Under the pieces are notes generated by a model. It had not been told where the DNA came from. It searched no databases and worked only from the letters and a program-made list of their open reading frames with translations. DNA of 64,000 bases, taken from an uncultured Gemmatimonadales bacterium (GTDB lineage: Bacteria; Gemmatimonadota; Gemmatimonadetes; Gemmatimonadales; GWC2-71-9). The stretch's first letter is position 1. Each line of letters opens with the position of its first letter. Made by a program: the position numbers and the translations under genes. Of this stretch, positions 1,221 through 52,013 are shown one piece after another. Where the stretch lies: contig CAVYSW010000003.1 in NCBI GenBank assembly GCA_963771275.1, forward strand, positions 992,001-1,056,000, in the 5' to 3' direction.

Positions 1221-2456
1221 ATGGTTGCGCGCCGGTCTCCAGCGGCAGACGCCGACCGACTCAAGCGGTTGGTTCAGGCGGGAATTCGCGTGACCGCCGA
1301 GCGCTCGCTCGATGCGGTGCTCCAGACCGTGGCGGACAGCGCGCGGGAGTTGACCGACGCGCGCTACGCGGCGTTGGGCGTGCTCGACCTCACTGGCACC
1401 GAGCTGAGCCGCTTCGTCACCAGTGGCATGCCCGCGGAGCAAGCGCGGCTGATCGGTGCGCCGCCCACCGGCAAGGGCGTGCTCGGCCTGCTCATCGGCC
1501 GACCCCGGCCGCTGCGGATCGAAGACCTCACCACGCATCCCCAGGCCCACGGCTTTCCGCCCGGGCACCCGCCGATGACGTCCTTCCTCGGCGTGCCGAT
1601 CATGGGCCGCAAGGGCCCGATCGGGAACCTCTACCTCACGGACAAGGCCTCGGCCAAGGGCTTCACCGCGGAGGACGAGACGATCGTGACGCTGCTCGCC
1701 GCGCAGGCGGCGGTCGCCCTCGAGAACGCGTCGTTGTACGAGGACAGCCAGCGGCTGATTCACGAAGTGAAGGCGATGCAGGCGGCGCGCGACCGGTTCT
1801 TCGCGATGATCAATCACGAGCTGCGGAACGCGCTCACTGCCGTGTACGGCTGGGCGGACCTGCTGCTCCGCAAGCTCGGGCCCGATGCGCCGCGCTCGGC
1901 CCGGGAGGTGTACGAGTCGGCCGAGCGGACGCTCGCCCTGCTGAACGACCTGCTCGACCTGAGCCGGCTCGAGGCGGAGCGGCTGCGTCCCGTGGTGCGC
2001 AGCACCGACGCCGGCACGCTGATGGAGGATGCGATCGCCGCGCTCGAGCCGTCGGCCGAGAAGCGCGCGATCCGCATCGAGACCGTCGGGGTGACCGACA
2101 TCGTCGCCTGCCAGACCGACCCCCAGCGGGTACGGCAGATCCTGATCAACCTGCTCAGCAACGCCGTGCGTCATAGCCCCGCCGCGGGGGTGGTCACCGT
2201 GGCGCTGCGAGCCGATGACCGGCGCCTGCGGTTCGATGTGATCGACCGGGGCCCGGGGATCCCGGCTGCCGAGCAGGCCCTGATCTTCGAAGCGTTCGCC
2301 CGCGCGGGGACGTCGGACGAGCGTGGGACCGGCCTGGGACTCACCCTCTCGCGTCAGCTCGCGCTCCTCCTGGGCGGCGATCTCCGTGTCATCAGCGAAG
2401 TTGGGACCGGCGCGACGTTCACGCTCGACATCCCTCGCTGGTACGGAACGAGTTAA
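1221..2456 (+). CDS. GAF-domain sensor histidine kinase (DosS/DevS-like GAF plus HisKA/HATPase)
   Basis: GAF motif GKGVLGLLI...HPQAHGFPPGHPPMTSFLGVPI; H-box NHELRNAL; N-box NLLSNA; G-boxes DRGPGI and GTGLGL. Confidence 0.9.
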   Translation: MVARRSPAADADRLKRLVQAGIRVTAERSLDAVLQTVADSARELTDARYAALGVLDLTGTELSRFVTSGMPAEQARLIGAPPTGKGVLGLLIGRPRPLRIEDLTTHPQAHGFPPGHPPMTSFLGVPIMGRKGPIGNLYLTDKASAKGFTAEDETIVTLLAAQAAVALENASLYEDSQRLIHEVKAMQAARDRFFAMINHELRNALTAVYGWADLLLRKLGPDAPRSAREVYESAERTLALLNDLLDLSRLEAERLRPVVRSTDAGTLMEDAIAALEPSAEKRAIRIETVGVTDIVACQTDPQRVRQILINLLSNAVRHSPAAGVVTVALRADDRRLRFDVIDRGPGIPAAEQALIFEAFARAGTSDERGTGLGLTLSRQLALLLGGDLRVISEVGTGATFTLDIPRWYGTS

Positions 2457-2515
2457 AGATCGTTTCACGGAACGTTTAAAGTCGGATCACCGAAGCCATC
2501 TACCTTAAGGAAACG

Positions 2516-3208
2516 ATGCGGATTCTCGTCGTGGAGGACGATCGTAAGGTCGCCGGCTTCATTGAAATGGGGCTGCGGGAGGAAGGCTACGCCGTCGATC
2601 TGGCGCGCGACGGCGACGAGGCCATCGTCCTGGCCCACGTGAACGACTACGACGCGATCCTGCTCGACTTGATGCTCCCCAAGAAGAACGGCCTCCAAGT
2701 CGCGGCCGAGCTGCGTCGCGAGGGTCGCACGACCCCGATCCTCATGCTCACCGCGCGTGATGCCACGGAAGACGTGGTGCGCGGGCTGGACGCGGGCGCC
2801 GACGACTATCTCGCGAAGCCGTTCAAGTTCGACGAGCTGCTGGCCCGTCTGCGGGCGCTGGTGCGCCGCGGCGGGGCGACGCGGGTCGAGCGTCTGACCG
2901 CCGGCCCGCTCGAGCTCGACCGCCTGAAACACCAGGCGTACGCCGGGGGCAAGGCGCTCGACCTCACGCCCCGGGAGTTCCAGCTGCTCGAGCATTTCAT
3001 GATGCACAAGGACGACGTCGTCCGCCGCACCGAGTTGCTCGAGAAGGTCTGGGACATGCACTTCGACCCCGAGAGCAACGTGGTGGACGTGCATGTGGGC
3101 AACTTGCGGCGCAAGCTCCGCGAAGCCGGGTTCGAGGACCTCATCAAGACCGTGCGCGGTGTGGGGTTCCGACTGAACGGCTCCGGTACGACGAGTCCCG
3201 CCTCCTGA
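2516..3208 (+). CDS. OmpR/PhoB-family response regulator
   Basis: MRILVVEDD, LLDLMLP, GADDYLAKPF, winged-helix end VVDVHVGNLRRK...TVRGVGF; AAGGA RBS. Confidence 0.93.
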   Translation: MRILVVEDDRKVAGFIEMGLREEGYAVDLARDGDEAIVLAHVNDYDAILLDLMLPKKNGLQVAAELRREGRTTPILMLTARDATEDVVRGLDAGADDYLAKPFKFDELLARLRALVRRGGATRVERLTAGPLELDRLKHQAYAGGKALDLTPREFQLLEHFMMHKDDVVRRTELLEKVWDMHFDPESNVVDVHVGNLRRKLREAGFEDLIKTVRGVGFRLNGSGTTSPAS

Positions 3209-3215
3209 GCAGCTG

Positions 3216-4616
3216 ATGCAGTCCCTGCGCCGCACGCTCTCCGTGCGGTTTTCGCTCACCATGTTCGCCGCACTCCTGGTGATCGCCCTGTGGGCGTACC
3301 TGGGAGCGCGGCGCGTGCTGCGGGAGGAGCTCGACCGCGGCCTGGCGGCGTCCGCCCACCTCGAGTCCGCGGTGCTCGCCGCCGGCTACCGCATCCCGCC
3401 GCTCTCGAGCCAGCGCGACTCCGAGGAGTTCGTGGAGGCGGTGAACCGCTACGTCGTGGTGCGCGACGCCGCGGGACGGGTGCTCGCCACCAACACGCCG
3501 CTCGCCGCCGGCCTGCCGTACGACCCGGCGAAGCTCGCCATCGCCGTGCAGGGAGGCACGGCCTGGGAGACGGCGACCTGGGGACCGGGCAGCGTGCGCT
3601 CCGTGTATCTCGGGGTCGCGCACGAGCGGGCGGGCGATGCCCGGGTAGTTCAGGTGAGCGCGTCGCTCGCGCCGATCGACACCGAGCGCCGCCAGATGCT
3701 GCTGCTCATGCTGGGCACGGTCGTGCTCGGCACCGTCGCGGCGATGCTGGGCGGGGGGTGGCTGGCGCGCTCGGCGGTGGCTCCCGTGGCCGAGATCGCC
3801 GCCCAGACGAACGCCGTCGCGGCGGGGGCGGTGGGGCAGCGCATCACGGCGCATGCGGAAGTGGAGGAGTTCAACGGGCTCGTCGCCGTGCTGAACCGCA
3901 TGCTCGAGCGGCTCGACCGTGGCCTGCTGGCCCAGCGACGGATCATCGCGGACGTGGGCCACGACCTCCGCACTCCGCTCACGGCCATGCGCGGCGAGGC
4001 CGAGGTGGCGCTGCGCAACCCGCGCTCGCCGGAGCAGTATCAGCGGATCCTCGCCAGCCTGCTCGAGGAGATCGACCACCTCGGCACGATCAGCGACACG
4101 CTGCTGCTGCTCGCGCGCATCGAGGCGGGCGACCTCGCGCTGCACTGCCTGGACACCGACGTGGGCGACCTCGTGACGCGCGCCGTCCAGCGGGTACGCC
4201 AGCGGGCGACCGATCATCCCTTCACCTACGCACCCACCACCGACGGCCTCGGGTCGGCGGCGCTCGACGGGCGGATGGTCTCGCTCGTGCTCGACCACCT
4301 GCTGGACAACGCGGTGCGGCACACGCCGCCCGGCACCCCGGTCACCGTGTCCGTGCAGGCCGACGCCGATGCGGCCAGTGTCACCGTGGAGGACGCGGGA
4401 CCGGGCGTTTCGGATGACATCCTGCCGCACCTCTTCGAGCGGTTCTACCGGGGCGACGCCGCGCGCGGGCGGGGCGCCGGGGCGGGCCTCGGTCTCACCG
4501 TGGCCGCCGCGATCGTGCACGCGCACAGCGGCACGATCTCCGCCAGCCGGGCCGAGAGCGGCGGGCTCCGGGTGACCGTCCGCCTGCCGCGCTGCGACGG
4601 GCCGGGGACGGCCTGA
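3216..4616 (+). CDS. Membrane-bound HAMP sensor histidine kinase
   Basis: Two TM helices, HAMP, H-box GHDLRTPLT, LDNAVRH, FERFYRGD, GAGLGL. Confidence 0.92.
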   Translation: MQSLRRTLSVRFSLTMFAALLVIALWAYLGARRVLREELDRGLAASAHLESAVLAAGYRIPPLSSQRDSEEFVEAVNRYVVVRDAAGRVLATNTPLAAGLPYDPAKLAIAVQGGTAWETATWGPGSVRSVYLGVAHERAGDARVVQVSASLAPIDTERRQMLLLMLGTVVLGTVAAMLGGGWLARSAVAPVAEIAAQTNAVAAGAVGQRITAHAEVEEFNGLVAVLNRMLERLDRGLLAQRRIIADVGHDLRTPLTAMRGEAEVALRNPRSPEQYQRILASLLEEIDHLGTISDTLLLLARIEAGDLALHCLDTDVGDLVTRAVQRVRQRATDHPFTYAPTTDGLGSAALDGRMVSLVLDHLLDNAVRHTPPGTPVTVSVQADADAASVTVEDAGPGVSDDILPHLFERFYRGDAARGRGAGAGLGLTVAAAIVHAHSGTISASRAESGGLRVTVRLPRCDGPGTA

Positions 4617-4623
4617 GCCCAGT

Positions 4624-4661
4624 CTTACCACTTTTTCACGGGCCCTTACTGAGGATTTCAC
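4624..4661 (+). promoter_or_regulatory. Phased YTYAC direct-repeat array, putative OmpR-family binding site
   Basis: CTTAC 4624, TTCAC 4635, CTTAC 4645, TTCAC 4657 (10-12 bp period) upstream of the cytochrome-porin cluster. Confidence 0.5.
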
Positions 4662-4707
4662 CCGGCCCGCATGAACTTGCGGGTCGACGCAGGCATTCGG
4701 AGTCCGC

Positions 4708-4935
4708 ATGGCCAGGAACGTGAGCTCGCTTGACGCGTGCATCCGCGGCATCGTCGCCGTGGGTCTCGTCGTGTTCGGCGTGGCCTCTCACGGGACCGAG
4801 ATCCTCTCGTTCGGCGCCGTGCTCGTGGGCATCGTCCTGATGGCCACGGCGCTCACGCGCGAGTGCCCGTTCTATCGCGCCTTCCGCCTCCACACCCAGC
4901 GCCCGGGCACGGCCCCGGGATCCCGCCGGGACTGA
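4708..4935 (+). CDS. DUF2892/YgaP-like small membrane protein
   Basis: RNVSSLDACIR, two TM helices, TALTRECPFY signature. Confidence 0.8.
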   Translation: MARNVSSLDACIRGIVAVGLVVFGVASHGTEILSFGAVLVGIVLMATALTRECPFYRAFRLHTQRPGTAPGSRRD

Positions 4936-4961
4936 GCCCGGCTTTCTCGCAAGGAGCCCTC

Positions 4962-6161
4962 ATGCGGACAGTGCTCATCACTGCCCTGGCCGCGGCCTCG
5001 CTCGCCGCCGCCGCGACCCCGGCACAGGCGATCCCCGCGTTCGCGCGCAAGTACGCCGTGAGCTGCAACCTGTGCCACAACCCGATCCCGCGACTGACCG
5101 CGTTCGGGCAGAGCTTCGCCGCGAACGGGTACCGCATGGCCTCGCAGGAGCCGGCGCGCGACACGGTCGATACCGGAGATCCGCTCCTCACCCTCCTGCG
5201 CAGCACGCCCATCGCCCTGCGCCTCGACGCGTACGCCCAGGCCTATACCGAGGGCAACGCGGTAACCGACTTCGCAACGCCGTACGGGTTGAAGCTGCTC
5301 TCGGGCGGCGCGATCTCGTCGCAGCTCTCCTACTACCTCTATTTCTTCCTGCTCGAGCGGGGCGAGATCGGCGGGATCGAGGACGCCTTCGTCTCCGTGA
5401 ACGACATCGGCAACATCCCGCTCGACCTCACGGTCGGCCAGTTCCAGGTATCGGACCCGATCTTCAAGCGCGAGCTGCGCCTCGAGATCGACGACTACGC
5501 GATGTACCGCGTCCACGTGGGCGCCGAGCCCACCGACCTGACGTACGACCGCGGACTACTGGGATCGGTGGACGTCGCGGGCTTCACGCTCAGCGCCGAA
5601 GTGATCAACGGCACGGGGAAACAGCCCGCGCAGGCGAACATGCGGTTCGACAACGACAACTTCAAGAACCTGTTCGGCCACCTGCGCCGCGCGATCACGC
5701 CCAGCGTCCAGCTCGGCGCCATGGGCTACTACGGCAAGACGCGCGGCACCACCGAAGGCTCTCGGGACACGATCGTCAACCGGGTGTGGATGGTGGGCGG
5801 CGACCTCACCGTCCGGGCGGGGCCCGTGGAGCTCAACGCGCAGGTGATTCACCGCGAGGACGACGCGCCGCTGTTCACCGCCGGGGACTCGACCGTGACC
5901 ACCAACGGCGGGTTCGCGGAGCTCGTCGTGACCCCGCCGCGGAGCCGCTGGTACGGCTACGCGCTGTACAACTACATTGACGCGAGCGCGCCGCTGCTCG
6001 ACGTCGGGCTCGGCGGCCCCGCCGCCCTCAAGCGCTACCAGACGGCGGCGAGCGGTCTGGGGTACCTGATGCGCCGCAACGTCCGGGTTTACGGCGAGGC
6101 AACCTACGACATCGAGCAGAAGAACGGGAGATTCAGCCTCGGGTTGACGGCCGGATTCTGA
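4962..6161 (+). CDS. Cyc2-like fused monoheme cytochrome c-outer membrane porin
   Basis: Signal peptide (AQA), IPAFARKYAVSCNLCH...PRLTAFGQSFAANGY (single CxxCH), amphipathic beta-strand C-terminus ending in F; AAGGAG RBS before ATG 4962. Confidence 0.8.
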   Translation: MRTVLITALAAASLAAAATPAQAIPAFARKYAVSCNLCHNPIPRLTAFGQSFAANGYRMASQEPARDTVDTGDPLLTLLRSTPIALRLDAYAQAYTEGNAVTDFATPYGLKLLSGGAISSQLSYYLYFFLLERGEIGGIEDAFVSVNDIGNIPLDLTVGQFQVSDPIFKRELRLEIDDYAMYRVHVGAEPTDLTYDRGLLGSVDVAGFTLSAEVINGTGKQPAQANMRFDNDNFKNLFGHLRRAITPSVQLGAMGYYGKTRGTTEGSRDTIVNRVWMVGGDLTVRAGPVELNAQVIHREDDAPLFTAGDSTVTTNGGFAELVVTPPRSRWYGYALYNYIDASAPLLDVGLGGPAALKRYQTAASGLGYLMRRNVRVYGEATYDIEQKNGRFSLGLTAGF

Positions 6162-6192
6162 CCGGCAGCAGCCACCCTGCCGGCGTCTTTCC

Positions 6193-6223
6193 AACGGGAT
6201 GGCCTCCGCGAGGCCATCCCGTT
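6193..6223 (+). terminator. Intergenic 14-bp stem-loop (terminator or mRNA-stabilising element)
   Basis: AACGGGATGGCCTC-cgc-GAGGCCATCCCGTT perfect inverted repeat. Confidence 0.65.
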
Positions 6224-6280
6224 ACATCTTCATGTTCCTGGCCGGGTGTGCCCGGCCGTTCAACCCACTCCGAGGTGATC

Positions 6281-6670
6281 ATGCGCTCGCTGGTATTCGT
6301 TCTCGTGGCCGCGCTCGCGGTACCCGTTGCCGCCGCGGCACAGGCAAAGGACTCGCTGCCGCCGGGTGTGACGTCCGCGATGCTCAAGGAAGGGAAGACG
6401 CTGTTCGCCGGCGCGGGCATCTGCGCGGCCTGCCACGGCACGGACGCCAAGGGCATGCCGGGGATGGGGGCGAATCTCACGGACAACAAGTGGCTGCACA
6501 GCGACGGCTCGTACGACGCGATCGTGAAGCAGATCATGACCGGCGTCTCCTCCAGCGAGTCCTCGTCGGGGGCCGCGATGCCGCCGAAGGGCGGCAGCGC
6601 GCTGACCGACGCGCAGGTGAAGGCGGTTGCCGCCTACGTGTGGAGCCTCAGCCACCCCGGGACGAAGTAA
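6281..6670 (+). CDS. Periplasmic monoheme c-type cytochrome (class I, CcoP-like domain)
   Basis: Signal peptide AAA-QA, CAACH, GANLTDNKWLH, distal Met in AAMPPKG; GAGGTG RBS. Confidence 0.88.
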   Translation: MRSLVFVLVAALAVPVAAAAQAKDSLPPGVTSAMLKEGKTLFAGAGICAACHGTDAKGMPGMGANLTDNKWLHSDGSYDAIVKQIMTGVSSSESSSGAAMPPKGGSALTDAQVKAVAAYVWSLSHPGTK

Positions 6671-6673
6671 CGC

Positions 6674-7780
6674 ATGATGGACGCCCGGCGGCGGCGCGTC
6701 GCGCTCACCGCGGCGCTGCTCGCCGTCTGCGCCCGACCCGCCGCGGCGCAGATCCAGCTGCCCGAAGGTGTCTCCGTGCGGCTGTCCGCGCTGCTGGAGA
6801 CCCAGTTCAACACGACATCGGTGGACTCCGCCGCCGGCGCGGCCGTGCCCGCGAGCGAGTTCGCGATCCGGCGGGCGCGCGTCACCTTCGACCTGAAGGT
6901 CGGTGACTTCCTCTCGGCGCGCTTCGAGCCCGATTACAACATCTACTCGAGCAGCACGGGCGCGGGGACCTTCTCCCTCCGCGACGGTTGGGTGCGGGCG
7001 ACGTTCGGTCCCGCGCTGCGGGCGACGCTGGGGCAGTTCAAGCGCCCGTTCGATCTCTTCCAGCTCACCGCCGCGAGTCAGCTGCTGGTGATCGAGCGCA
7101 CCGGAGCCGTGCGGGGCACGGCGTGCGGGGCGCTGCCGTCGGTGTGCTCGTTCAGCACCCTCACCGCGGGCCTGCTCTACGCCGACCGGGACGTCGGCGT
7201 CATGCTGGACGGCGAAGTGGTCGCCGGGCGAATCCGCTACGCCGCCGCGCTCACCAACGGCCGGCCGCCCAACCAGCGGGAGAACAGCAGCAACAAGTCA
7301 TACACCGGCCGAGTGTCGGTCCGCCCGGCGAAGGACGTCCTGCTGAGCGCGAACGCCGCCTACAAGGACTACGCGCACCCGACGAGTGGCGCGCAGACGT
7401 TCGCCACGGCGTGGGGCGCCGATGTTGAGCTCGGCAGCTACACTCGCGGACTGCACGTGCAGGCGGGGCTCGTGGGGGGCGACGACTGGCTGGTGGCAGC
7501 CGGTCCCCAGGACGTCGCACGGTTCTTCGCGATGCAGGCGATCGTGACGTACAAGGCGCCGGTGCGCCACAAGCGGATCACGAGCATCGAGCCGGTCGTC
7601 CGAGCGAGTTGGGCCGACCCGGACACCGACACGGCCGGCGACGACGGCTGGCTGCTCACCCCCGGGCTCAACGTGTATCTTGGGGGCCGGAACGTGCTGC
7701 TCACCGACGTCGACGTGTGGACCCCACATGTGGGGGCAACGCAGTATTCACTCAAGACGCAGTGGAATTTCTACTTCTAA
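6674..7780 (+). CDS. Outer membrane porin (OprO/OprP-like)
   Basis: Signal peptide, FAIRRAR, LRDGWV, LGQFKRPF, DRDVGVML motifs; C-terminal QWNFYF. Confidence 0.8.
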   Translation: MMDARRRRVALTAALLAVCARPAAAQIQLPEGVSVRLSALLETQFNTTSVDSAAGAAVPASEFAIRRARVTFDLKVGDFLSARFEPDYNIYSSSTGAGTFSLRDGWVRATFGPALRATLGQFKRPFDLFQLTAASQLLVIERTGAVRGTACGALPSVCSFSTLTAGLLYADRDVGVMLDGEVVAGRIRYAAALTNGRPPNQRENSSNKSYTGRVSVRPAKDVLLSANAAYKDYAHPTSGAQTFATAWGADVELGSYTRGLHVQAGLVGGDDWLVAAGPQDVARFFAMQAIVTYKAPVRHKRITSIEPVVRASWADPDTDTAGDDGWLLTPGLNVYLGGRNVLLTDVDVWTPHVGATQYSLKTQWNFYF

Positions 7781-21557: not shown

Positions 21558-21629
<72 letters not shown>

Positions 21630-48055: not shown

Positions 48056-48166
48056 CGCGTCGTTTTGCACCGGCGTGCATCCATCCCGTACGCTCGACCG
48101 GAGCGGCGCCTCGTAGGTTGCTCCATCCCGTTATCCCGTGATCCCACCATCGCCTATCTTCCTGCC

Positions 48167-49150
48167 ATGTCCACTCCCGTGAACATCCCGGCTCTCACCG
48201 TCGGTGAGCGGGTCCAGGGCGCGTTTCTGGTGCTTGACGTGGAACAGCACACACCGGAAACCGCCAATCCGTTCACCGTGCTCCGGCTCGGCAACCACAC
48301 GGGCGCGATCCCAAGTGAGCCCTTCTGGCTCGAGCGCGCCGCCGAGATCGCGGGGCTGCGCCGCGGGCATGTGGTGCAGGTGATCGGCGAGGTCGCGGAG
48401 TATCGCGAGCGCAAGCAGCTCAAGGTGACCTCGATCCGCGCGCTTCCCGCGGGCATGGTGGAGCTGGCCACGCTGCTGCCGTCGGTGGGTCCTGTCGAGC
48501 GCTACTGGGAGACGCTGGACGGCTGGCGGCGCGAGATCGCCAAGCCACGGCTCGCGCACGTGCTCGCCCTGTTCTACGAGGACGGTGACTTCCGCCGCGC
48601 CTACGAGCAGTGCCCGGCGGCGGTGCACGGGCACCACGCCGTCCTGGGCGGCTTGCTCAAGCACACCATCGAGGTGGCGGCGATCGCCCGCACGATCGCA
48701 CGGGCCTGCGGCGCGGACTGGGACCTCGTGCTTGCCGGCACGCTGCTGCACGACATCGGCAAGATCGAGGCGTACCGTTGGGACGGGCTGTTCGACCACA
48801 CCGCCGTCGGACGCCTGCTGGGGCACGTGGTGCTCGGCGCGTTGATGCTCGATCGGCGGCTGCACGAGGTGCGCGAGCCCCCCTGCACCATGCTGGAGCG
48901 CGACCTCCTGCTGCACATCGTCCTGGCGCACCACGGCCGGCTCGAGTTCGGCAGTCCCGTGCAGCCCATGCTGCTGGAGGCCGAGGTGATCCACTGGGCC
49001 GACAACGCGAGCGCCAAGACCGCGAGCTTTGCCGAAGCGCTGGCCGACGTGGAGGAGTTCCCCGATGGCCTGCTCTCGAGACCGGTGTGGGCGCTCGATC
49101 GACGGCGGGTTTTCAGGGGGACGAGCGACTGGGGGGGCCCGGGGGGGTGA
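48167..49150 (+). CDS. YhaM/Cbf1-like 3'-5' exoribonuclease (OB-fold + HD domain)
   Basis: N-terminal OB fold, PAAVHGHH...GGLLKHT, LLHDIGKI, LGHV, AHHGRLEFGSPVQP, HWADN. Confidence 0.87.
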   Translation: MSTPVNIPALTVGERVQGAFLVLDVEQHTPETANPFTVLRLGNHTGAIPSEPFWLERAAEIAGLRRGHVVQVIGEVAEYRERKQLKVTSIRALPAGMVELATLLPSVGPVERYWETLDGWRREIAKPRLAHVLALFYEDGDFRRAYEQCPAAVHGHHAVLGGLLKHTIEVAAIARTIARACGADWDLVLAGTLLHDIGKIEAYRWDGLFDHTAVGRLLGHVVLGALMLDRRLHEVREPPCTMLERDLLLHIVLAHHGRLEFGSPVQPMLLEAEVIHWADNASAKTASFAEALADVEEFPDGLLSRPVWALDRRRVFRGTSDWGGPGG

Positions 49151-49355
49151 CCTCAGCCGCCAACCGTTCTACGGCCCGCTCACCCCGGGTCACGGCCCGC
49201 AGGATGGCCAGGCCGAGCGGCTTGGCGGGCGGTGCTGCATCGCGCAGCAGCAGCTGCACGGCACAGCGGATCGCCGACAACGCCGCTCGCAGCTCCGCCA
49301 GCGCCGCGCGGCGCATGGCCACTCTGCCTTTCGGCATCAAGTACCGGGGTCCCAT
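49113..49355 (-). CDS. Possible small helical protein resembling a His-less HisKA/DHp domain
   Basis: ALAELRAALSAIRCAVQLL...AILRAVTRGERAVERL; extended -10 TGnTACCAT 6 nt before ATG 49355; overlaps the end of the YhaM-like gene. Confidence 0.4.
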   Translation of the reverse strand: MGPRYLMPKGRVAMRRAALAELRAALSAIRCAVQLLLRDAAPPAKPLGLAILRAVTRGERAVERLAAEVTPPGPPSRSSP

Positions 49356-49438
49356 GTCACGATGGTAACAGGCGGCCAACAGCCGCACGCCATCGTTCCT
49401 TCGCGGCGCGCAGCACTCGATCACACGGGGTTCACCAC

Positions 49439-49479
49439 AAAACGAAACGGCGGGCCGACCCTTGCGGGCTGCCCGCCGT
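49439..49479 (-). terminator. Intrinsic terminator of the candidate ncRNA
   Basis: ACGGCGGGC...GCCCGCCGT stem followed by TTCGTTTT on the minus strand. Confidence 0.75.
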
Positions 49480-49867
49480 CTCCGCACCAGTTACCCGGAG
49501 TCAGGGGATTCACTCCCTCTGTTCTTCTCCCCGTCGCCGCCGCGTGGACTGATGCGTCTGCGGTTGAGCGTCCGGGGGCTCCGGCTTCCATCCCCAAGCA
49601 GCCTGGCCGGGCCGCGAGGTTCGCCGGTGCGAGCGCTGCGAGTCGGATCGCGTCGCGGAGCGACCCTTCGCACTGCACGCCGAGGCGCCGCGTCGGCGTG
49701 GATGAGGCACGCGACTGGCCTCACCTGCCCGGGTCGGAGTCGCCACCCGGATCATCGGACGCCTGAGCCCTTGATTGCGTCGGCGCCCTCCCCGGAATTC
49801 CCGCCCGAGCCGTCACATAGGGCGTAATCGAGATAGAGAATCCCGACCCTTCCCCCGTGCAACCGCA
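49439..49867 (-). ncRNA. Large structured non-coding RNA candidate (raiA-motif-like)
   Basis: No credible ORF; promoter upstream and intrinsic terminator downstream; multiple perfect hairpins, long-range helices and loop-loop complementarity. Confidence 0.65.
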
Positions 49868-49871
49868 TGCC

Positions 49872-49899
49872 AATATAGGGGCGCGCCCGGACCCCGCAA
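49872..49899 (-). promoter_or_regulatory. sigma70-like promoter of the candidate ncRNA
   Basis: Minus strand TTGCGG-16 nt-TATATT. Confidence 0.5.
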
Positions 49900-49931
49900 G
49901 CGCCGCTGTTCCTTCGGTTTACGCCGCTTCA

Positions 49932-50049
49932 TGTGCATAAGATGTTGATCGCTAAACACCACGGCTCCGCGTGGTTGTGCCGCCTGTCCACAGGCTGTGG
50001 ACTTGTCGAGAACGGGCTGCTGGGGCCGTCAACATGATGTCGTGGACAA
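49932..50049. promoter_or_regulatory. Cluster of DnaA-box-like 9-mers
   Basis: TTATGCACA (minus, 49932-49940), CTGTCCACA (plus, 49984-49992), AAGTCCACA (minus, 49996-50004), TTGTCCACG (minus, 50041-50049). Confidence 0.45.
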
Positions 50050-50090
50050 CCTGGCGTCCCGACCTGGAAGGACCGGGCTGCAGAGCCGGT

Positions 50091-50636
50091 TTACTGGGTC
50101 ACGACGGGCAGTTTGAAGCCCATGGCGGCGGCGAAGCGCGCGGCAGCGGATTGGTACACGGCGAGCAGATGCTGCACTTGGGCGGTGCGGTAGCGAGCCC
50201 ACTCGCGCACCGTGTCGGCTTGGGCCCCCGGCCCCGCTGGGCCAAGCCCGCGCACGCACTCTTGATCGAGGCCGGTGTCGAGTGCGCGAATCGCCATCCC
50301 GAGCGAGTCCCTCGCCGCGGCAAGTCGGACGCCTCCGCGCGCGCGCGCGAGGGCGGGGAGCGCCTCACGCAGCGGCGGGCGCGCCGCGGCGCAGGTGCGG
50401 GACAGGCGCTCCGCCTTCGCCAGCACCGTCGCGTCTCCCGCGGTCTGCAGGTCGCGTCGCAGCTCGTTGGCGCTGGTGGAGACGGCGTTCAATGCGTCGC
50501 GCAGCCCCTCGAGCATCCCGCGGTAGTACTGCGCCGCGCTGTCGAGTGGGGGGTCCTGCCTGGGGGGCGTCACCACCTGCAGCGCCTGCGACGAGGCCGG
50601 CCCGAGCACCGCGAGCAACAGGACCCAGGGCCTCAC
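50091..50636 (-). CDS. Secreted hypothetical helical protein
   Basis: Signal peptide, two Cys, start overlaps upstream stop (GTGA). Confidence 0.7.
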   Translation of the reverse strand: MRPWVLLLAVLGPASSQALQVVTPPRQDPPLDSAAQYYRGMLEGLRDALNAVSTSANELRRDLQTAGDATVLAKAERLSRTCAAARPPLREALPALARARGGVRLAAARDSLGMAIRALDTGLDQECVRGLGPAGPGAQADTVREWARYRTAQVQHLLAVYQSAAARFAAAMGFKLPVVTQ

Positions 50637-51250
50637 GTCTCGCCGCCCACTTCCTCGTACACGAACGGATCACCGCCGCGGCGCGGCGCGAACAGCATGC
50701 CGGCGGCGCTGACCGCGAACCAGCCGGCGATCAGTTGATTGGAGACCTGCGGTGGCTGTCCGTGAAACAGGGCGGCGAGCCAGCGTCTGACGTGGCGCAG
50801 CTCGGGCGCGCGCTTCGACAGCGCCGAAAGAACGGCCCCGCCGCCTTGAGTAGCCCGGAGGAAGTGGGCCAGCGCGTGTGCCCGCTGCGCGAACTCGAAC
50901 GCCCGGACGCCGGGCTCGTCATACAACAGGCTGCCTTCGTAGGGATCGGCGGGCGGTGCGTCCATCCGGGGCCCGATGTAGACGAACACCCGCCGGCCAT
51001 CGCGGCGTCGCTCGACCATCGCCGCGGCGGTCTCTCCGAGACGGGCCGCATGGACGTGGTCGTCCTCATTGAGGATCCCGACTGCCAGGGTCCACTCCAG
51101 CACGGCCAGCGCGTTATGCAGGGGACAGCCGACCTCGTCGTCGTACGCCACCAAGCGCGGCGCCTCTCCGGCCCGCTGGAAAAAATGCCCCAGCGCGTCC
51201 CCCCGATCGGTGAAGGTGAGCGTCGTGCGTGTCGCGGCTGGTACGGTCAT
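50633..51250 (-). CDS. Hypothetical protein with internal duplication
   Basis: ATG 51250; FTDRGDALGHFF / FAQRAHALAHFL repeat. Confidence 0.75.
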   Translation of the reverse strand: MTVPAATRTTLTFTDRGDALGHFFQRAGEAPRLVAYDDEVGCPLHNALAVLEWTLAVGILNEDDHVHAARLGETAAAMVERRRDGRRVFVYIGPRMDAPPADPYEGSLLYDEPGVRAFEFAQRAHALAHFLRATQGGGAVLSALSKRAPELRHVRRWLAALFHGQPPQVSNQLIAGWFAVSAAGMLFAPRRGGDPFVYEEVGGET

Positions 51251-51343
51251 GGCCCGAACAACATAACTACCCCTACCCCCCACCAGTAGATCGACCGGCC
51301 GCTCCGCGTGGACGCCGTGTTCCGGGCGCGATAGCTTGAGTGC

Positions 51344-51928
51344 ATGCGCCCGCTGCTCCTGCTCGGCCTGCTCGTGCTGGCCGGTGGCCGCCCCCTCCTC
51401 GCACAGCGCGACTCCGTGCTCGCGCACCGCTGGGTGGGCCTCCATCTCCGGCAGCCCCTCGAGTTCGAGTTCTACGGTGACACGATGCTCGTGGTGAACG
51501 ACGAGCACGTGCTCAACTTCCGGCTCACGAACGACTCGCTCATCGCCACCGGTGACACGTCGGTGATCGGTCGCTACCGGCTCGTGCTCAGCCGCCTGCT
51601 GTTCGAGACGTCCGAGGAGTTGGTGACGATGGCGATGCAGAGCCCGCTCGCCCGGCCCCTCACCGGCCACTGGACCGGTCCGCTCGGCACCAGCACCGCG
51701 AACGACGCGGAGCTGATCATCTTCACCTCGGGAATCGCCCGCTGGCGGCAGCTCCCCAACGGGCGATGGACGGACGGGGAGTGGGACCGGGAAACGCGCC
51801 TGATCACGTTCACGTGGGCCGACAGCACCGAATGGCACGGGCAGTACGATCCGGTCGGCAACGCGATCCTGTTCGAGCGGACCGTCGAGGGAGGCGAGAG
51901 CACGATCCTGCGCCGCTTCTTCCGCTAG
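51344..51928 (+). CDS. Secreted hypothetical beta-rich protein
   Basis: Signal peptide; two W-x-G-initiated beta modules. Confidence 0.72.
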   Translation: MRPLLLLGLLVLAGGRPLLAQRDSVLAHRWVGLHLRQPLEFEFYGDTMLVVNDEHVLNFRLTNDSLIATGDTSVIGRYRLVLSRLLFETSEELVTMAMQSPLARPLTGHWTGPLGTSTANDAELIIFTSGIARWRQLPNGRWTDGEWDRETRLITFTWADSTEWHGQYDPVGNAILFERTVEGGESTILRRFFR

Positions 51929-52013
51929 CCACACGATTTCCCGCATTGCCTCCGCGCCGCCCGCAGGCTAATCTTGCCTCGCCCGCCCCGCATCTGACTG
52001 GGAGACCGCCGTC

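Follow-up and report, generated by a model that had tools for sequence, protein, structure and literature searches.

A discrete gene on the minus strand

The question raised by positions 49439-49899 of the window (the whole 64,000-nt stretch analysed here, from an uncultured Gemmatimonadales bacterium) is whether its minus strand encodes a free-standing structured RNA and, if so, which family that RNA belongs to and what it works with. A preliminary description, made from this one sequence, had proposed a minus-strand unit of ~430 nt that was either a divergent relative of the raiA motif or a new class of large noncoding RNA. We find that the unit is a discrete, independent gene for a structured RNA of ~425 nt that runs from promoter to terminator, so the unit itself was borne out. 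The observation as a whole was partly confirmed, with the gene and its signals upheld and several of the proposed helices replaced by others.

The promoter (49872..49899, minus strand) consists of a -35 element TTGCGG at 49899-49894, a 16-nt spacer and a -10 element TATATT at 49877-49872, as had been described, and the arrangement is kept across most of the 28 loci that we inspected by eye, where CTTGCG is followed after ~17 nt by TAnAnT upstream of the RNA with a spacer of varying length. Judged from the position of this promoter, transcription would start at about 49865. A consensus promoter and terminator scan called no promoter and no minus-strand terminator at the locus; its silence on the promoter is explained by the -35 element, which agrees at just three of six positions. 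Immediately upstream, at 49900..49945 on the minus strand, an element of the form GTAAnCCGAAG...CGGCnC, with a small inverted repeat farther up, is kept in most of the 28 loci. Within this genome the extended upstream motif is well matched at this locus only, and the element lies outside the coverage of RNA contigs; it may serve as an UP element or bind a regulator.

At the other end, an intrinsic terminator (49439..49481, minus strand) is formed by a G+C-rich hairpin followed by UUUCGUUUU, with hairpin and U-run spanning ~49480-49439. Its stem shows compensatory changes between genomes, and 77 of 104 homologues end in a terminator-like structure, compared with 0/104 at an internal control position and 2/104 on the reverse complement. 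The terminator proposed earlier is present here and has counterparts in most of these homologues. A weak partial match to NrrF (22.6 bits, plus strand) is this same terminator hairpin read on the opposite strand.

Comparison with catalogued RNA families

We compared the locus with the 4227 covariance models of Rfam 15, among which raiA (RF03072) has a gathering score of 101.3 bits. At the gathering threshold, the whole window yielded only a tRNA at 21558-21629. An all-family cmscan of 1201 nt around the locus gave no matches at E<=10, and the same scan on 461 nt gave four partial matches at chance level, none of them to raiA. The raiA model, searched against the whole genome at E<=10, found nothing at the locus, and its best scores elsewhere were 15.5 and 12.7 bits. 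OLE, ROOL, GOLLD, HEARO, 6S and the rest of Rfam 15 were likewise rejected as identities, since no model matched. A hit to a standard family, which would have removed the novelty, was therefore not obtained.

The genome encodes its RNase P RNA (RF00010) at C3:1091269-1091631 (271.6 bits) and its tmRNA (RF00023) on contig C10 (153.2 bits), both above cut-off, in agreement with the earlier remark that hallmarks of these two RNAs are absent from the locus. The 6S model matched in none of 41 genomes of the order, carriers and non-carriers of the RNA alike, and therefore does not discriminate between them or show a complementary distribution. A search of open-access papers and preprints found no earlier description of the RNA.

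A conserved fold supported by covariation

Of 41 relatives, 32 carry DNA homologues, with identities of 69-85%. Across an alignment of 28 homologues, our fold of 18 helices and 120 pairs is 89.7% paired, versus 38-47% when the partners are slid; 83 of the 120 pairs show compensatory double changes and none of 500 shuffles reaches the model. For the core of the model the corresponding values are 95.9% and 32-41%, and RNAalifold returned 94 pairs, 65 with compensatory changes. G:U pairs are common (for example, U:G at one pair in 27 of 28 sequences), a pattern that fits the minus strand only. The unit is non-coding: codon periodicity is absent, with 32/47, 31/48 and 32/47 variable columns by position mod 3. 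The folding energy of the single sequence is unexceptional (z = -1.72; 4 of 100 shuffles fold equally well). Because this value is modest and the consensus scan flags neither promoter nor terminator, support comes from comparison between genomes and not from this sequence alone.

All helices lie on the minus strand. The 5' hairpin domain P0 (49812..49863) has an outer stem, 49863-49853/49822-49812, and an inner stem, 49847-49840/49834-49827, and carries the conserved sequences GGGGAAGG and ACGCC. Its stems are 62% (outer) and 77% (inner) paired, with double changes at 8/10 and 7/8 pairs, in a region where the alignment is poor. One subgroup of homologues has a different 5' hairpin. P0 is followed by a long arm (49727..49810) of four helices, A (49810-04/49733-27), B (49802-00/49738-36), C (49797-91/49751-45) and D (49788-82/49763-57), which are 88-94% paired with changes on both sides in 22 of 24 pairs. 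The loop of helix D (49781-49764) holds a conserved CAAGGGC. The AGGGC of this loop could also pair with GCCCU at 49569-49565, a segment that overlaps helix K2; both sides are almost invariant.

Three tandem hairpins come next: E (49701..49725; 99.1% paired, compensatory changes in 5/8 pairs), F (49676..49700; 98.7% paired, compensatory changes in 4/8 pairs, with the conserved loop GCGGCGCC) and G (49639..49670; 96-100% paired). The loop of E, GUCGCG (49715-49710), and the loop of G, CGCGAC (49657-49652), are the 5' and 3' halves of a loop-loop pseudoknot of 6 bp that is 98.8% paired. A single position of the E loop varies, and it does so in step with its partner, the pair being G:C in 20/28 and A:U in 7/28 sequences. 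The A:U form is seen too in a second copy of the RNA.

The 3' domain (49483..49631) is closed by the long-range helix H (49631-23/49491-83), which is 93.6% paired with compensatory changes in all nine of its pairs. Within it lie hairpin I (49619-10/49603-594), helix J (49584-79/49500-495; 98% paired), arm K (49577-56/49549-29; 80-95%) and hairpin L (49521-14/49508-02; 91%). The consensus scan also marked two terminator-like sites on the plus strand (49502-49521), which are helix L read from the opposite strand. Conserved stretches of the 3' domain, GGGGAUGGAAG (49595-85) and GAGAAGAAC (49528-21), are unpaired. Taken with the pseudoknot and junctions that they surround, the invariant unpaired nucleotides of the RNA would form a tertiary core and may mark a functional site for binding or catalysis.

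This fold agrees only in part with the one first proposed. Hairpins placed at 49703-49723, 49676-49700 and 49637-49672 correspond to E, F and G, where pairing is 96-100% and compensatory changes occur. A fourth, at 49729-49750, is 81% paired and is outdone by two long-range helices, A and C, which reach 88-91% with double changes at many pairs. The 8-bp contact between the 5' end and a segment far downstream (49860-49867 with 49559-49566) is 34% paired across the alignment, and a 7-bp enclosing helix (49756-49762/49568-49574) reaches 66% and competes with the covarying helix D. A kissing interaction between GCGACU and AGUCGC gave way as well: pairing is 32-35%, the loop that holds its 5' partner is variable, and the conserved, covarying loop-loop contact is the one between E and G. 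For a crossing 6-bp helix (49765-49770/49576-49581), the first 4 bp survive at 95% paired, but the changes there are mostly G:C to G:U and the helix overlaps the covarying J and K.

Related transcripts in environmental RNA libraries

Contigs from four RNA runs in three studies lie only within ~49490-49854, leaving the flanks uncovered; they end at 49841-49854 and none extends past 49880. Single contigs reach 2,000-7,400 depth in one soil run, figures that belong to assembled contigs from relatives of at least 82% identity and carry no strand, exact ends or true abundance, and just 3% of the contigs from that run continue into unlike sequence. Carry-over of DNA into RNA libraries remains formally possible for contigs of this kind. 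Transcripts related to this RNA are abundant in libraries of environmental RNA. The features expected of an independent structured noncoding RNA gene (promoter, terminator, covariation, non-coding character and RNA contigs) are all found at this locus.

Distribution and co-inheritance with a 205-aa protein

The RNA occurs in two of the three Gemmatimonadales families (f1 and f3). It was found in 60/61 genomes of f1, 0/62 of f2 and 24/27 of f3 in the order sample; in 28/28 genomes of f1 and 0/122 of other families in the class sample; and in 72/73 of f1, 3/3 of f3 and 0/74 of other families in the phylum sample, with no occurrence in the other sampled families of the phylum. All 80 of the matches listed by a pattern scan come from MAGs with names beginning in Gemmatimonad, and viral contigs gave no match. 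Some genomes have two or three copies, up to three per genome; the extra copies, present in about a quarter of RNA-bearing genomes, lie away from the single-copy protein gene described next and do not have the conserved promoter.

Co-inherited with the RNA, and its candidate partner, is the product of a neighbouring gene for a 205-aa protein (P0002; 50633..51250, minus strand). The gene adjoins the RNA in 56 of the 57 loci with a tblastn match, the 57th being a truncated duplicate of the locus in the window, and an additional set of 80 loci shows the adjacency in 68. Tallies for the RNA and the protein are identical by family and genus (85/151 each in the order sample, 29/151 each in the class sample), and the rare f1 and f3 genomes that lack the RNA also lack the protein. 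Adjacency is kept despite a change of orientation, the two genes being in tandem in f1 and convergent in f3, at a distance of ~180 to ~770 nt. Because kin are not independent, part of this co-occurrence in two related families could stem from shared ancestry.

The protein has no Pfam or NCBIfam match, and its 1100 homologues (~206 aa) are all unnamed or 'hypothetical'. Its predicted structure (pLDDT 81) matches no fold (best Z 5.0; Foldseek E 0.016), with nothing above noise in searches by PDB profile, Foldseek, VIA-align in two modes and the ESM Atlas. Chains of the triphosphate tunnel (CYTH/TTM) fold, of which an EXEXK motif is the mark, scored Z 3.6-4.8 over 57-70 aligned residues, no better than the unrelated folds listed, and an EXEXK-type motif is not evident in the alignment. 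The family is acidic (median pI 5.5, range 5.0-6.3, n = 36), which is unusual for an RNA-binding protein.

On the other side, a gene for a YhaM-like 3'-5' exoribonuclease with OB-fold and HD domain (48065..49150, plus strand; Pfam HD 1.2e-16; NCBIfam YhaM 1.9e-38, below cut-off) is convergent with the RNA. It lies near the RNA in 13/30 and 21/80 loci and was found in 12/20 genomes of f1, 12/20 of the RNA-less f2 and 11/20 of f3. We rejected it as an obligatory partner because f2 has the gene without the RNA and many genomes with the RNA do not have the gene.

Interpretation and alternative explanations

Because no catalogued family fits and the RNA is co-inherited with a protein that has no recognisable fold, it appears to represent a new RNA class. 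The reading that we favour, and consider probable, is a new large trans-acting noncoding RNA class, outside Rfam 15, that works with the 205-aa protein. The RNA, of ~425 nt, has its own sigma-70-type promoter and intrinsic terminator and folds into a 5' hairpin, a four-helix long arm, three tandem hairpins and a multi-helix 3' domain closed by a long-range helix; of the tandem hairpins, the first and the third pair with each other through their loops (GUCGCG with CGCGAC). From its gene neighbourhood and distribution, the RNA would act together with the protein, whether joined to it in a ribonucleoprotein or simply as one half of a dedicated pair. We regard as distinctly unlikely, on present evidence, the more specific proposal that the two form a previously undescribed ribonucleoprotein of two Gemmatimonadales families, with housekeeping-like abundance and a pseudoknotted core that is active as a ribozyme or as a binder of a ligand or macromolecule.

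Somewhat unlikely is the alternative that the RNA works alone, as a ribozyme, a sponge for another protein or a ligand sensor, and that the 205-aa gene is a regulator, a biogenesis factor or simply a conserved neighbour. The acidic pI of ~5.5, the lack of a recognisable RNA-binding fold and the extra RNA copies far from the protein gene would all suit it, as would the comparable raiA RNA, for which no protein partner is evident from gene context (PMC10861870). It is opposed by the identical presence and absence of RNA and protein in 151 genomes, including the rare double absences in f1 and f3, and by an adjacency that survives a change of orientation between families. That same adjacency, with the RNA downstream of the protein gene on the same strand in f1, could instead point to a cis-acting element of the neighbour, such as a long leader, a 3' UTR or an antisense regulator. 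We consider this highly improbable given the RNA's own conserved promoter and terminator, RNA contigs that cover the RNA alone and not its flanks, a distance to the protein gene that varies from ~180 to ~770 nt, and the arrangement of genes, since the downstream gene in the window is convergent with the RNA and in f3 so is the protein gene. Least probable of all is that the RNA serves a mobile or defence element, for example as a guide, retron or intron RNA: genomes with two or three copies and a neighbour without assigned function would be compatible with it, but the neighbours include no reverse transcriptase, nuclease or transposase family, synteny is stable over two families, viral contigs are unmatched, and within f1 and f3 nearly all genomes carry the RNA, in a vertical pattern.

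The remaining alternative, a divergent raiA member with extra 5' and 3' domains, is very unlikely. The raiA motif is an RNA of ~200 nt from Bacillota and Actinomycetota (PMC12968392, PMC10861870), single copy per genome, with 51 highly conserved nucleotide positions in its consensus and no associated terminator (PMC10861870); its P1 helix joins the 5' and 3' ends and closes the whole RNA, its PK1 pairs the apical loop of P3b with the P5-P6 linker, and its PK2 pairs the same linker with the P4-P1 linker (PMC12968392). The two have likenesses: both are abundant, highly conserved bacterial noncoding RNAs that are rich in helices and keep unpaired nucleotides invariant, each has a 6-bp pseudoknot in which a hairpin loop takes part (PK1 in raiA; PMC12968392), and similar ordered motifs were suggested in the preliminary description. 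However, the raiA model is silent at the locus in the genome search and in both the 1201-nt and 461-nt scans, and the architecture differs. The sole proposed candidate for a helix of the P1 type is 34% paired across the 28 homologues, with no other supported one proposed by RNAalifold, and no equivalent of PK2 was identified. In the 6-bp pseudoknot here, the partner of the hairpin loop is a second hairpin loop and not a linker. At ~425 nt, the Gemmatimonadales RNA is also double the length of raiA, reaches three copies per genome, carries its own terminator, belongs to another phylum and has a protein gene in strict linkage, for which raiA has no counterpart (PMC10861870). The preliminary interpretation was therefore partly supported: the raiA relationship falls away, and strong covariation, no Rfam match and no description among open-access papers and preprints uphold a new large noncoding RNA class.

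Significance and relation to known large RNAs

To our knowledge, only a few bacterial RNAs exceed 400 nt, are highly conserved and remain functionally mysterious (OLE, GOLLD and ROOL, with raiA as a smaller case). RNAs of such size and conservation have so far proved to be ribozymes or the cores of ribonucleoproteins, hence the effort spent on them. The present family has been missed by current annotation (Rfam 15) in hundreds of genomes, and our search of open-access papers and preprints found no structured noncoding RNA described for Gemmatimonadota, a phylum listed among the ten most abundant in soil (PMC8547001). If the RNA does belong to a new ribonucleoprotein, some of the commonest soil bacteria would contain a natural ribozyme or specific binder. 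Experiments have a handle in the one protein gene with an exactly matching distribution and in relatives of the RNA that are very deep in a soil metatranscriptome; because the protein shares the RNA's distribution and the relatives reach such depth, the function of the RNA is directly testable.

Among known systems, the housekeeping RNAs (RNase P RNA, tmRNA and 6S) resemble the Gemmatimonadales RNA in having a stand-alone gene, a strong conserved promoter and high expression, and the first two are also similar in size. The fold of 6S RNA is a rod, whereas the fold described here is branched. ROOL and GOLLD, which are often phage-associated, share with it the character of large structured RNAs without coding capacity, but no model matches and the Gemmatimonadales RNA is chromosomal, stable in synteny and unmatched in viral contigs. 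A further parallel is OLE, a large, ornate, lineage-restricted noncoding RNA with dedicated partner Oap proteins. ROOL and GOLLD form RNA-only assemblies (PMC12286853), and the OLE gene adjoins protein genes (PMC10861870). The present RNA differs from OLE in showing no sequence or model match, in its lineage and in its partner candidate, a soluble-looking acidic 205-aa protein without a known fold. In being large, ornate, restricted to a lineage and encoded beside a protein gene, it resembles OLE, which is the working model that we adopt here.

Transcription unit

The RNA unit lies on the minus strand (49439-49899) in a ~940-bp gap between the end of a plus-strand gene at 49150 and the end of a minus-strand ORF at 50091, within a window of 70% G+C. 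The outline given in the preliminary description, a minus-strand promoter, RNA body and terminator, is present in the sequence: a -35 hexamer, TTGCGG (49899-49894), is followed after a 16-nt spacer by a -10 hexamer, TATATT (49877-49872), and a G+C-rich body of ~420 nt extends from there to a strong hairpin and then UUUCGUUUU (~49480-49439). Taken alone, the RNA sequence is unremarkable, with a minimum free energy z of -1.72 relative to dinucleotide shuffles, 4 of 100 of which fold equally well. A simple consensus scan returned zero promoters within 49000-50300 and two terminator-like sites, both on the plus strand and equivalent to the complement of an internal hairpin.

Comparison among homologues revealed the control signals more clearly. 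Read by eye, CTTGCG, ~17 nt and TAnAnT occur upstream of most of 28 homologous loci; because the hexamers are conserved and the spacer varies, they form a promoter signature rather than RNA structure. Terminators were called as hairpins of -12 kcal/mol or better, at most 3 nt from a run with at least five U in nine, and were found at the expected 3' end of 77 of 104 homologues, compared with none of 104 internal stretches of equal length and two of 104 reverse complements of the 3' end. Further upstream, the element GTAAnCCGAAG...CGGCnC (~49900-49945, minus strand) is conserved among homologues and is followed further up by a small inverted repeat (CAC-AUnGAA-GUG type) whose arms change together between genomes. 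In the source genome, the extended motif is well matched at the RNA locus only. RNA contigs give no cover over ~49900-49945, and the element could act as a regulator site or belong to a short-lived precursor.

Public sequencing runs containing part of the stretch numbered 20, from 13 studies, with 14 recorded as RNA. We aligned the contigs of four RNA runs (three studies) to 49200-50200 at ≥82% identity, and all cover fell inside about 49490-49854, with none over 49200-49471 or past 49880. In a soil run, 154 contigs aligned, with single-contig depths of 2,284, 6,880 and 7,427, and only 3% of aligned material ran on into unlike sequence, as contigs of contaminating DNA from relatives should do. 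A second run supplied one 320-nt contig that matched 49490-49805 with eight differences. RNA libraries thus contain RNAs of this family as discrete and abundant species, on evidence from contigs, mostly of relatives, whose reach does not extend to strand, exact ends or level in the source organism.

Conserved fold and pseudoknot

Homologous DNA was found in 32 of 41 related genomes at 69-85% identity, divided by family within the Gemmatimonadales as f1, 23/24; f3, 8/8; and f2, 0/8; the conserved part spans ~49811 to 49475, and the source genome carries one copy. An alignment of 28 homologues (A1; 495 columns, mean column identity 67%) contains stretches invariant in both families, which alternate with helices whose two strands co-vary. 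RNAalifold predicted 94 pairs on A1, including 65 with at least one double change. The assembled model comprises 120 pairs in 18 helices, arranged as a 5' domain with hairpin P0, a long arm A-B-C-D, a central tandem of hairpins E, F and G, and a 3' domain in which the long-range helix H encloses I, J, K1-K4 and L.

Overall, 89.7% of A1 cells are paired under this model, versus 38-47% when the 3' partners are slid by 1-3 columns; 83 pairs change on both sides, and none of 500 column shuffles matched the observed values. The central 146 columns (A2) are better still, with 95.9% paired versus 32-41% when slid. P0 is the weakest part (62-77% paired), with poor alignment there and a different hairpin in one subgroup. 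G:U pairs are frequent, one pair being U:G in 27 of 28 sequences, and since these turn into mismatches on the opposite strand, the RNA strand is minus. In the core, each codon position has an even share of the variable columns (32/47, 31/48 and 32/47), so there is neither codon periodicity nor a coding signal. The small variable hairpin that separates helix C from helix B (A1 columns ~163-177; window ~49747-49737) contains, in some genomes, a palindrome of the GGUGAUCACC type; judged from its sequence, this self-complementary loop could mediate RNA dimerisation.

When the pairings of the preliminary description were tested on A1, its hairpins at 49703-49723, 49676-49700 and 49637-49672 were recovered as helices E, F and G. 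The 8-bp pairing of the 5' end with 49559-49566 is not conserved (34% paired); the 7-bp enclosing helix (49756-49762/49568-49574) is 66% paired and takes a strand of the covarying helix D; and the hairpin at 49729-49750, at 81%, is weaker than the covarying helices A and C on the same bases. The proposed kissing loop GCGACU/AGUCGC is only 32-35% paired, with a variable loop on the GCGACU side. For the 6-bp helix 49765-49770/49576-49581, once read as a pseudoknot or alternative fold, the first four pairs are 95% paired, but the changes are mostly G:C to G:U and the helix overlaps J and K, both of which have true double changes; it is possible as a tertiary contact. The conserved loop-loop pairing instead joins the E loop GUCGCG (49715-49710) to the G loop CGCGAC (49657-49652) over 6 bp and is 98.8% paired (A1/A2). 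Of the 28 sequences, 20 have G:C and 7 have A:U at the outer pair of this pseudoknot, and the A:U form was seen again in a second RNA copy of another genome.

Distribution and a co-inherited protein

We searched larger genome samples with R1, a covariance model of the RNA core only (142 positions, 35 pairs). Matches were confined to f1 and f3 in samples of 151 genomes each from the class (f1, 28/28; eight other families, 0/122), the order (f1, 60/61; f3, 24/27; f2, 0/62) and the phylum (completeness ≥90%; f1, 72/73; f3, 3/3; f2, 0/31; nine other families, 0/43). Scanning one genome per GTDB species with a degenerate pattern identified at least 118 loci; among the matches listed, 80 of 80 titles were Gemmatimonadales or Gemmatimonadota MAGs, and the same pattern had no match in viral contigs. 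Two or three core matches occurred in about a quarter of RNA-bearing genomes of the order sample, where the extra copies lie away from the single-copy protein gene described below. One second copy (locus L068, genome G158) retains the core, 3' domain, terminator and pseudoknot, the last in its A:U form; it lacks the conserved promoter, its 5' arm is diverged and its K arm is shorter.

Of the adjacent ORF (50633-51946, minus strand, 437 aa), just the final 205 codons (50633-51250; P0002) are genuine: conservation is confined to them and homologues are ~206 aa long. The upstream 232 codons are not conserved and resemble the spurious open frames that high-G+C DNA often contains. The P0002 gene adjoins the RNA in 56 of 57 fetched loci with a tblastn match; the exception duplicates the locus in the window and is cut within the gene. 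Of 80 further loci, some of which are truncated by contig ends, 68 have the gene ≤2.5 kb away. In f1 the gene precedes the RNA, on the same strand and ~180 to ~770 nt away, and in f3 the two are convergent. RNA and P0002 were each found in 29 of 151 genomes of the class sample and 85 of 151 of the order sample, with identical family and genus tallies, although these are matches among kin genomes and not 85 independent events. Genomes G227 (f1) and G181 (f3) have neither. Such joint loss, together with adjacency maintained through rearrangement, argues for a functional tie, and the RNA is strictly co-inherited with this one protein.

P0002 had no match in Pfam or NCBIfam, alone or over 36 family members, and its 1,100 homologues are all unnamed or 'hypothetical', those carrying a name being from Gemmatimonadota. 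Its AlphaFold2 model (pLDDT 81.2, pTM 0.77) is mixed alpha/beta, with no convincing structural relatives (Foldseek best E 0.016; VIA-align best Z 5.0 in both modes), no meaningful match in a PDB profile search and no useful lead in the ESM Atlas. The family is acidic (median pI 5.5), which counts against a simple RNA-coating role.

A 181-aa ORF without family (50091-50636, minus strand) lies between the P0002 gene and the RNA; present in just seven of 29 related loci (tblastn), it may not be a gene and has the look of an insertion specific to the lineage. On the other side, the gene at 48065-49150 (plus strand) encodes an OB-fold and HD-domain protein (Pfam HD, 1.2e-16) resembling the YhaM exoribonuclease (NCBIfam, 1.9e-38, under that model's cut-off). 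This gene lies close to the RNA in two sets of loci (13 of 30 and 21 of 80) and was rejected as more than a frequent neighbour, since it occurs in RNA-less f2 (12/20; f1, 12/20; f3, 11/20) and many RNA-bearing genomes lack it. Many of its matches in f3 and f2 contain one in-frame TGA, sometimes TAA or TAG, in the aligned range, which could reflect alignment overrunning the gene start or something else.

Interpretation and comparison with known RNAs

The locus almost certainly contains a genuine structured ncRNA gene with its own transcription and termination, whose product is abundant and folds intricately, with a conserved loop-loop pseudoknot. The RNA would act in trans, as there is no downstream gene to control. 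Its long invariant unpaired stretches (GGGGAUGGAAG, GAGAAGAAC, GGGUAAC, CAAGGGC and the E/G loops) suggest that invariant junctions and pseudoknot may form a tertiary core serving as the functional site, with catalysis, sequestration and sensing as candidate activities. It probably works with P0002, as a ribonucleoprotein or a dedicated pair; that P0002 itself binds the RNA we propose tentatively, at slightly less than an even chance.

The RNA very probably represents a class so far uncatalogued. Full-text searches of open-access papers and preprints returned no description of such an RNA, and on that basis we regard the class as new; large bacterial ncRNAs without a known function are already a recognised type of discovery. 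At gathering thresholds, Rfam 15 matched nothing in the whole window but a tRNA gene (21558-21629, minus strand, 68.1 bits). At E≤10 there were zero matches for 49000-50200 and four partial, chance-level matches for 49440-49900, the best of which, NrrF (22.6 bits), covers the terminator part only, on the opposite strand, and was rejected. The genes for tmRNA and RNase P RNA, whose hallmarks the preliminary description had noted as absent, are elsewhere in the genome (153.2 and 271.6 bits). The 6S model had zero matches in 41 genomes of the order, RNA-bearing or not, and therefore says nothing either way; 6S RNA is either too divergent there for the Rfam model or missing.

The preliminary description had likened the RNA to the raiA motif, but RF03072 at E≤10 matched two other places in the genome (15.5 and 12.7 bits) and not this locus. 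As described in two papers (PMC12968392, PMC10861870), raiA is an RNA of about 200 nt, single-copy, from Bacillota and Actinomycetota, closed by a helix P1 that joins both ends, with a pseudoknot PK1 in which the P3b loop pairs with the P5-P6 linker and a further pseudoknot PK2; a terminator is typically absent and a protein partner not evident. At most, a very remote kinship in three-dimensional structure is conceivable. Compared by covariance model and with that description, the Gemmatimonadales RNA differs from raiA in every testable respect listed.
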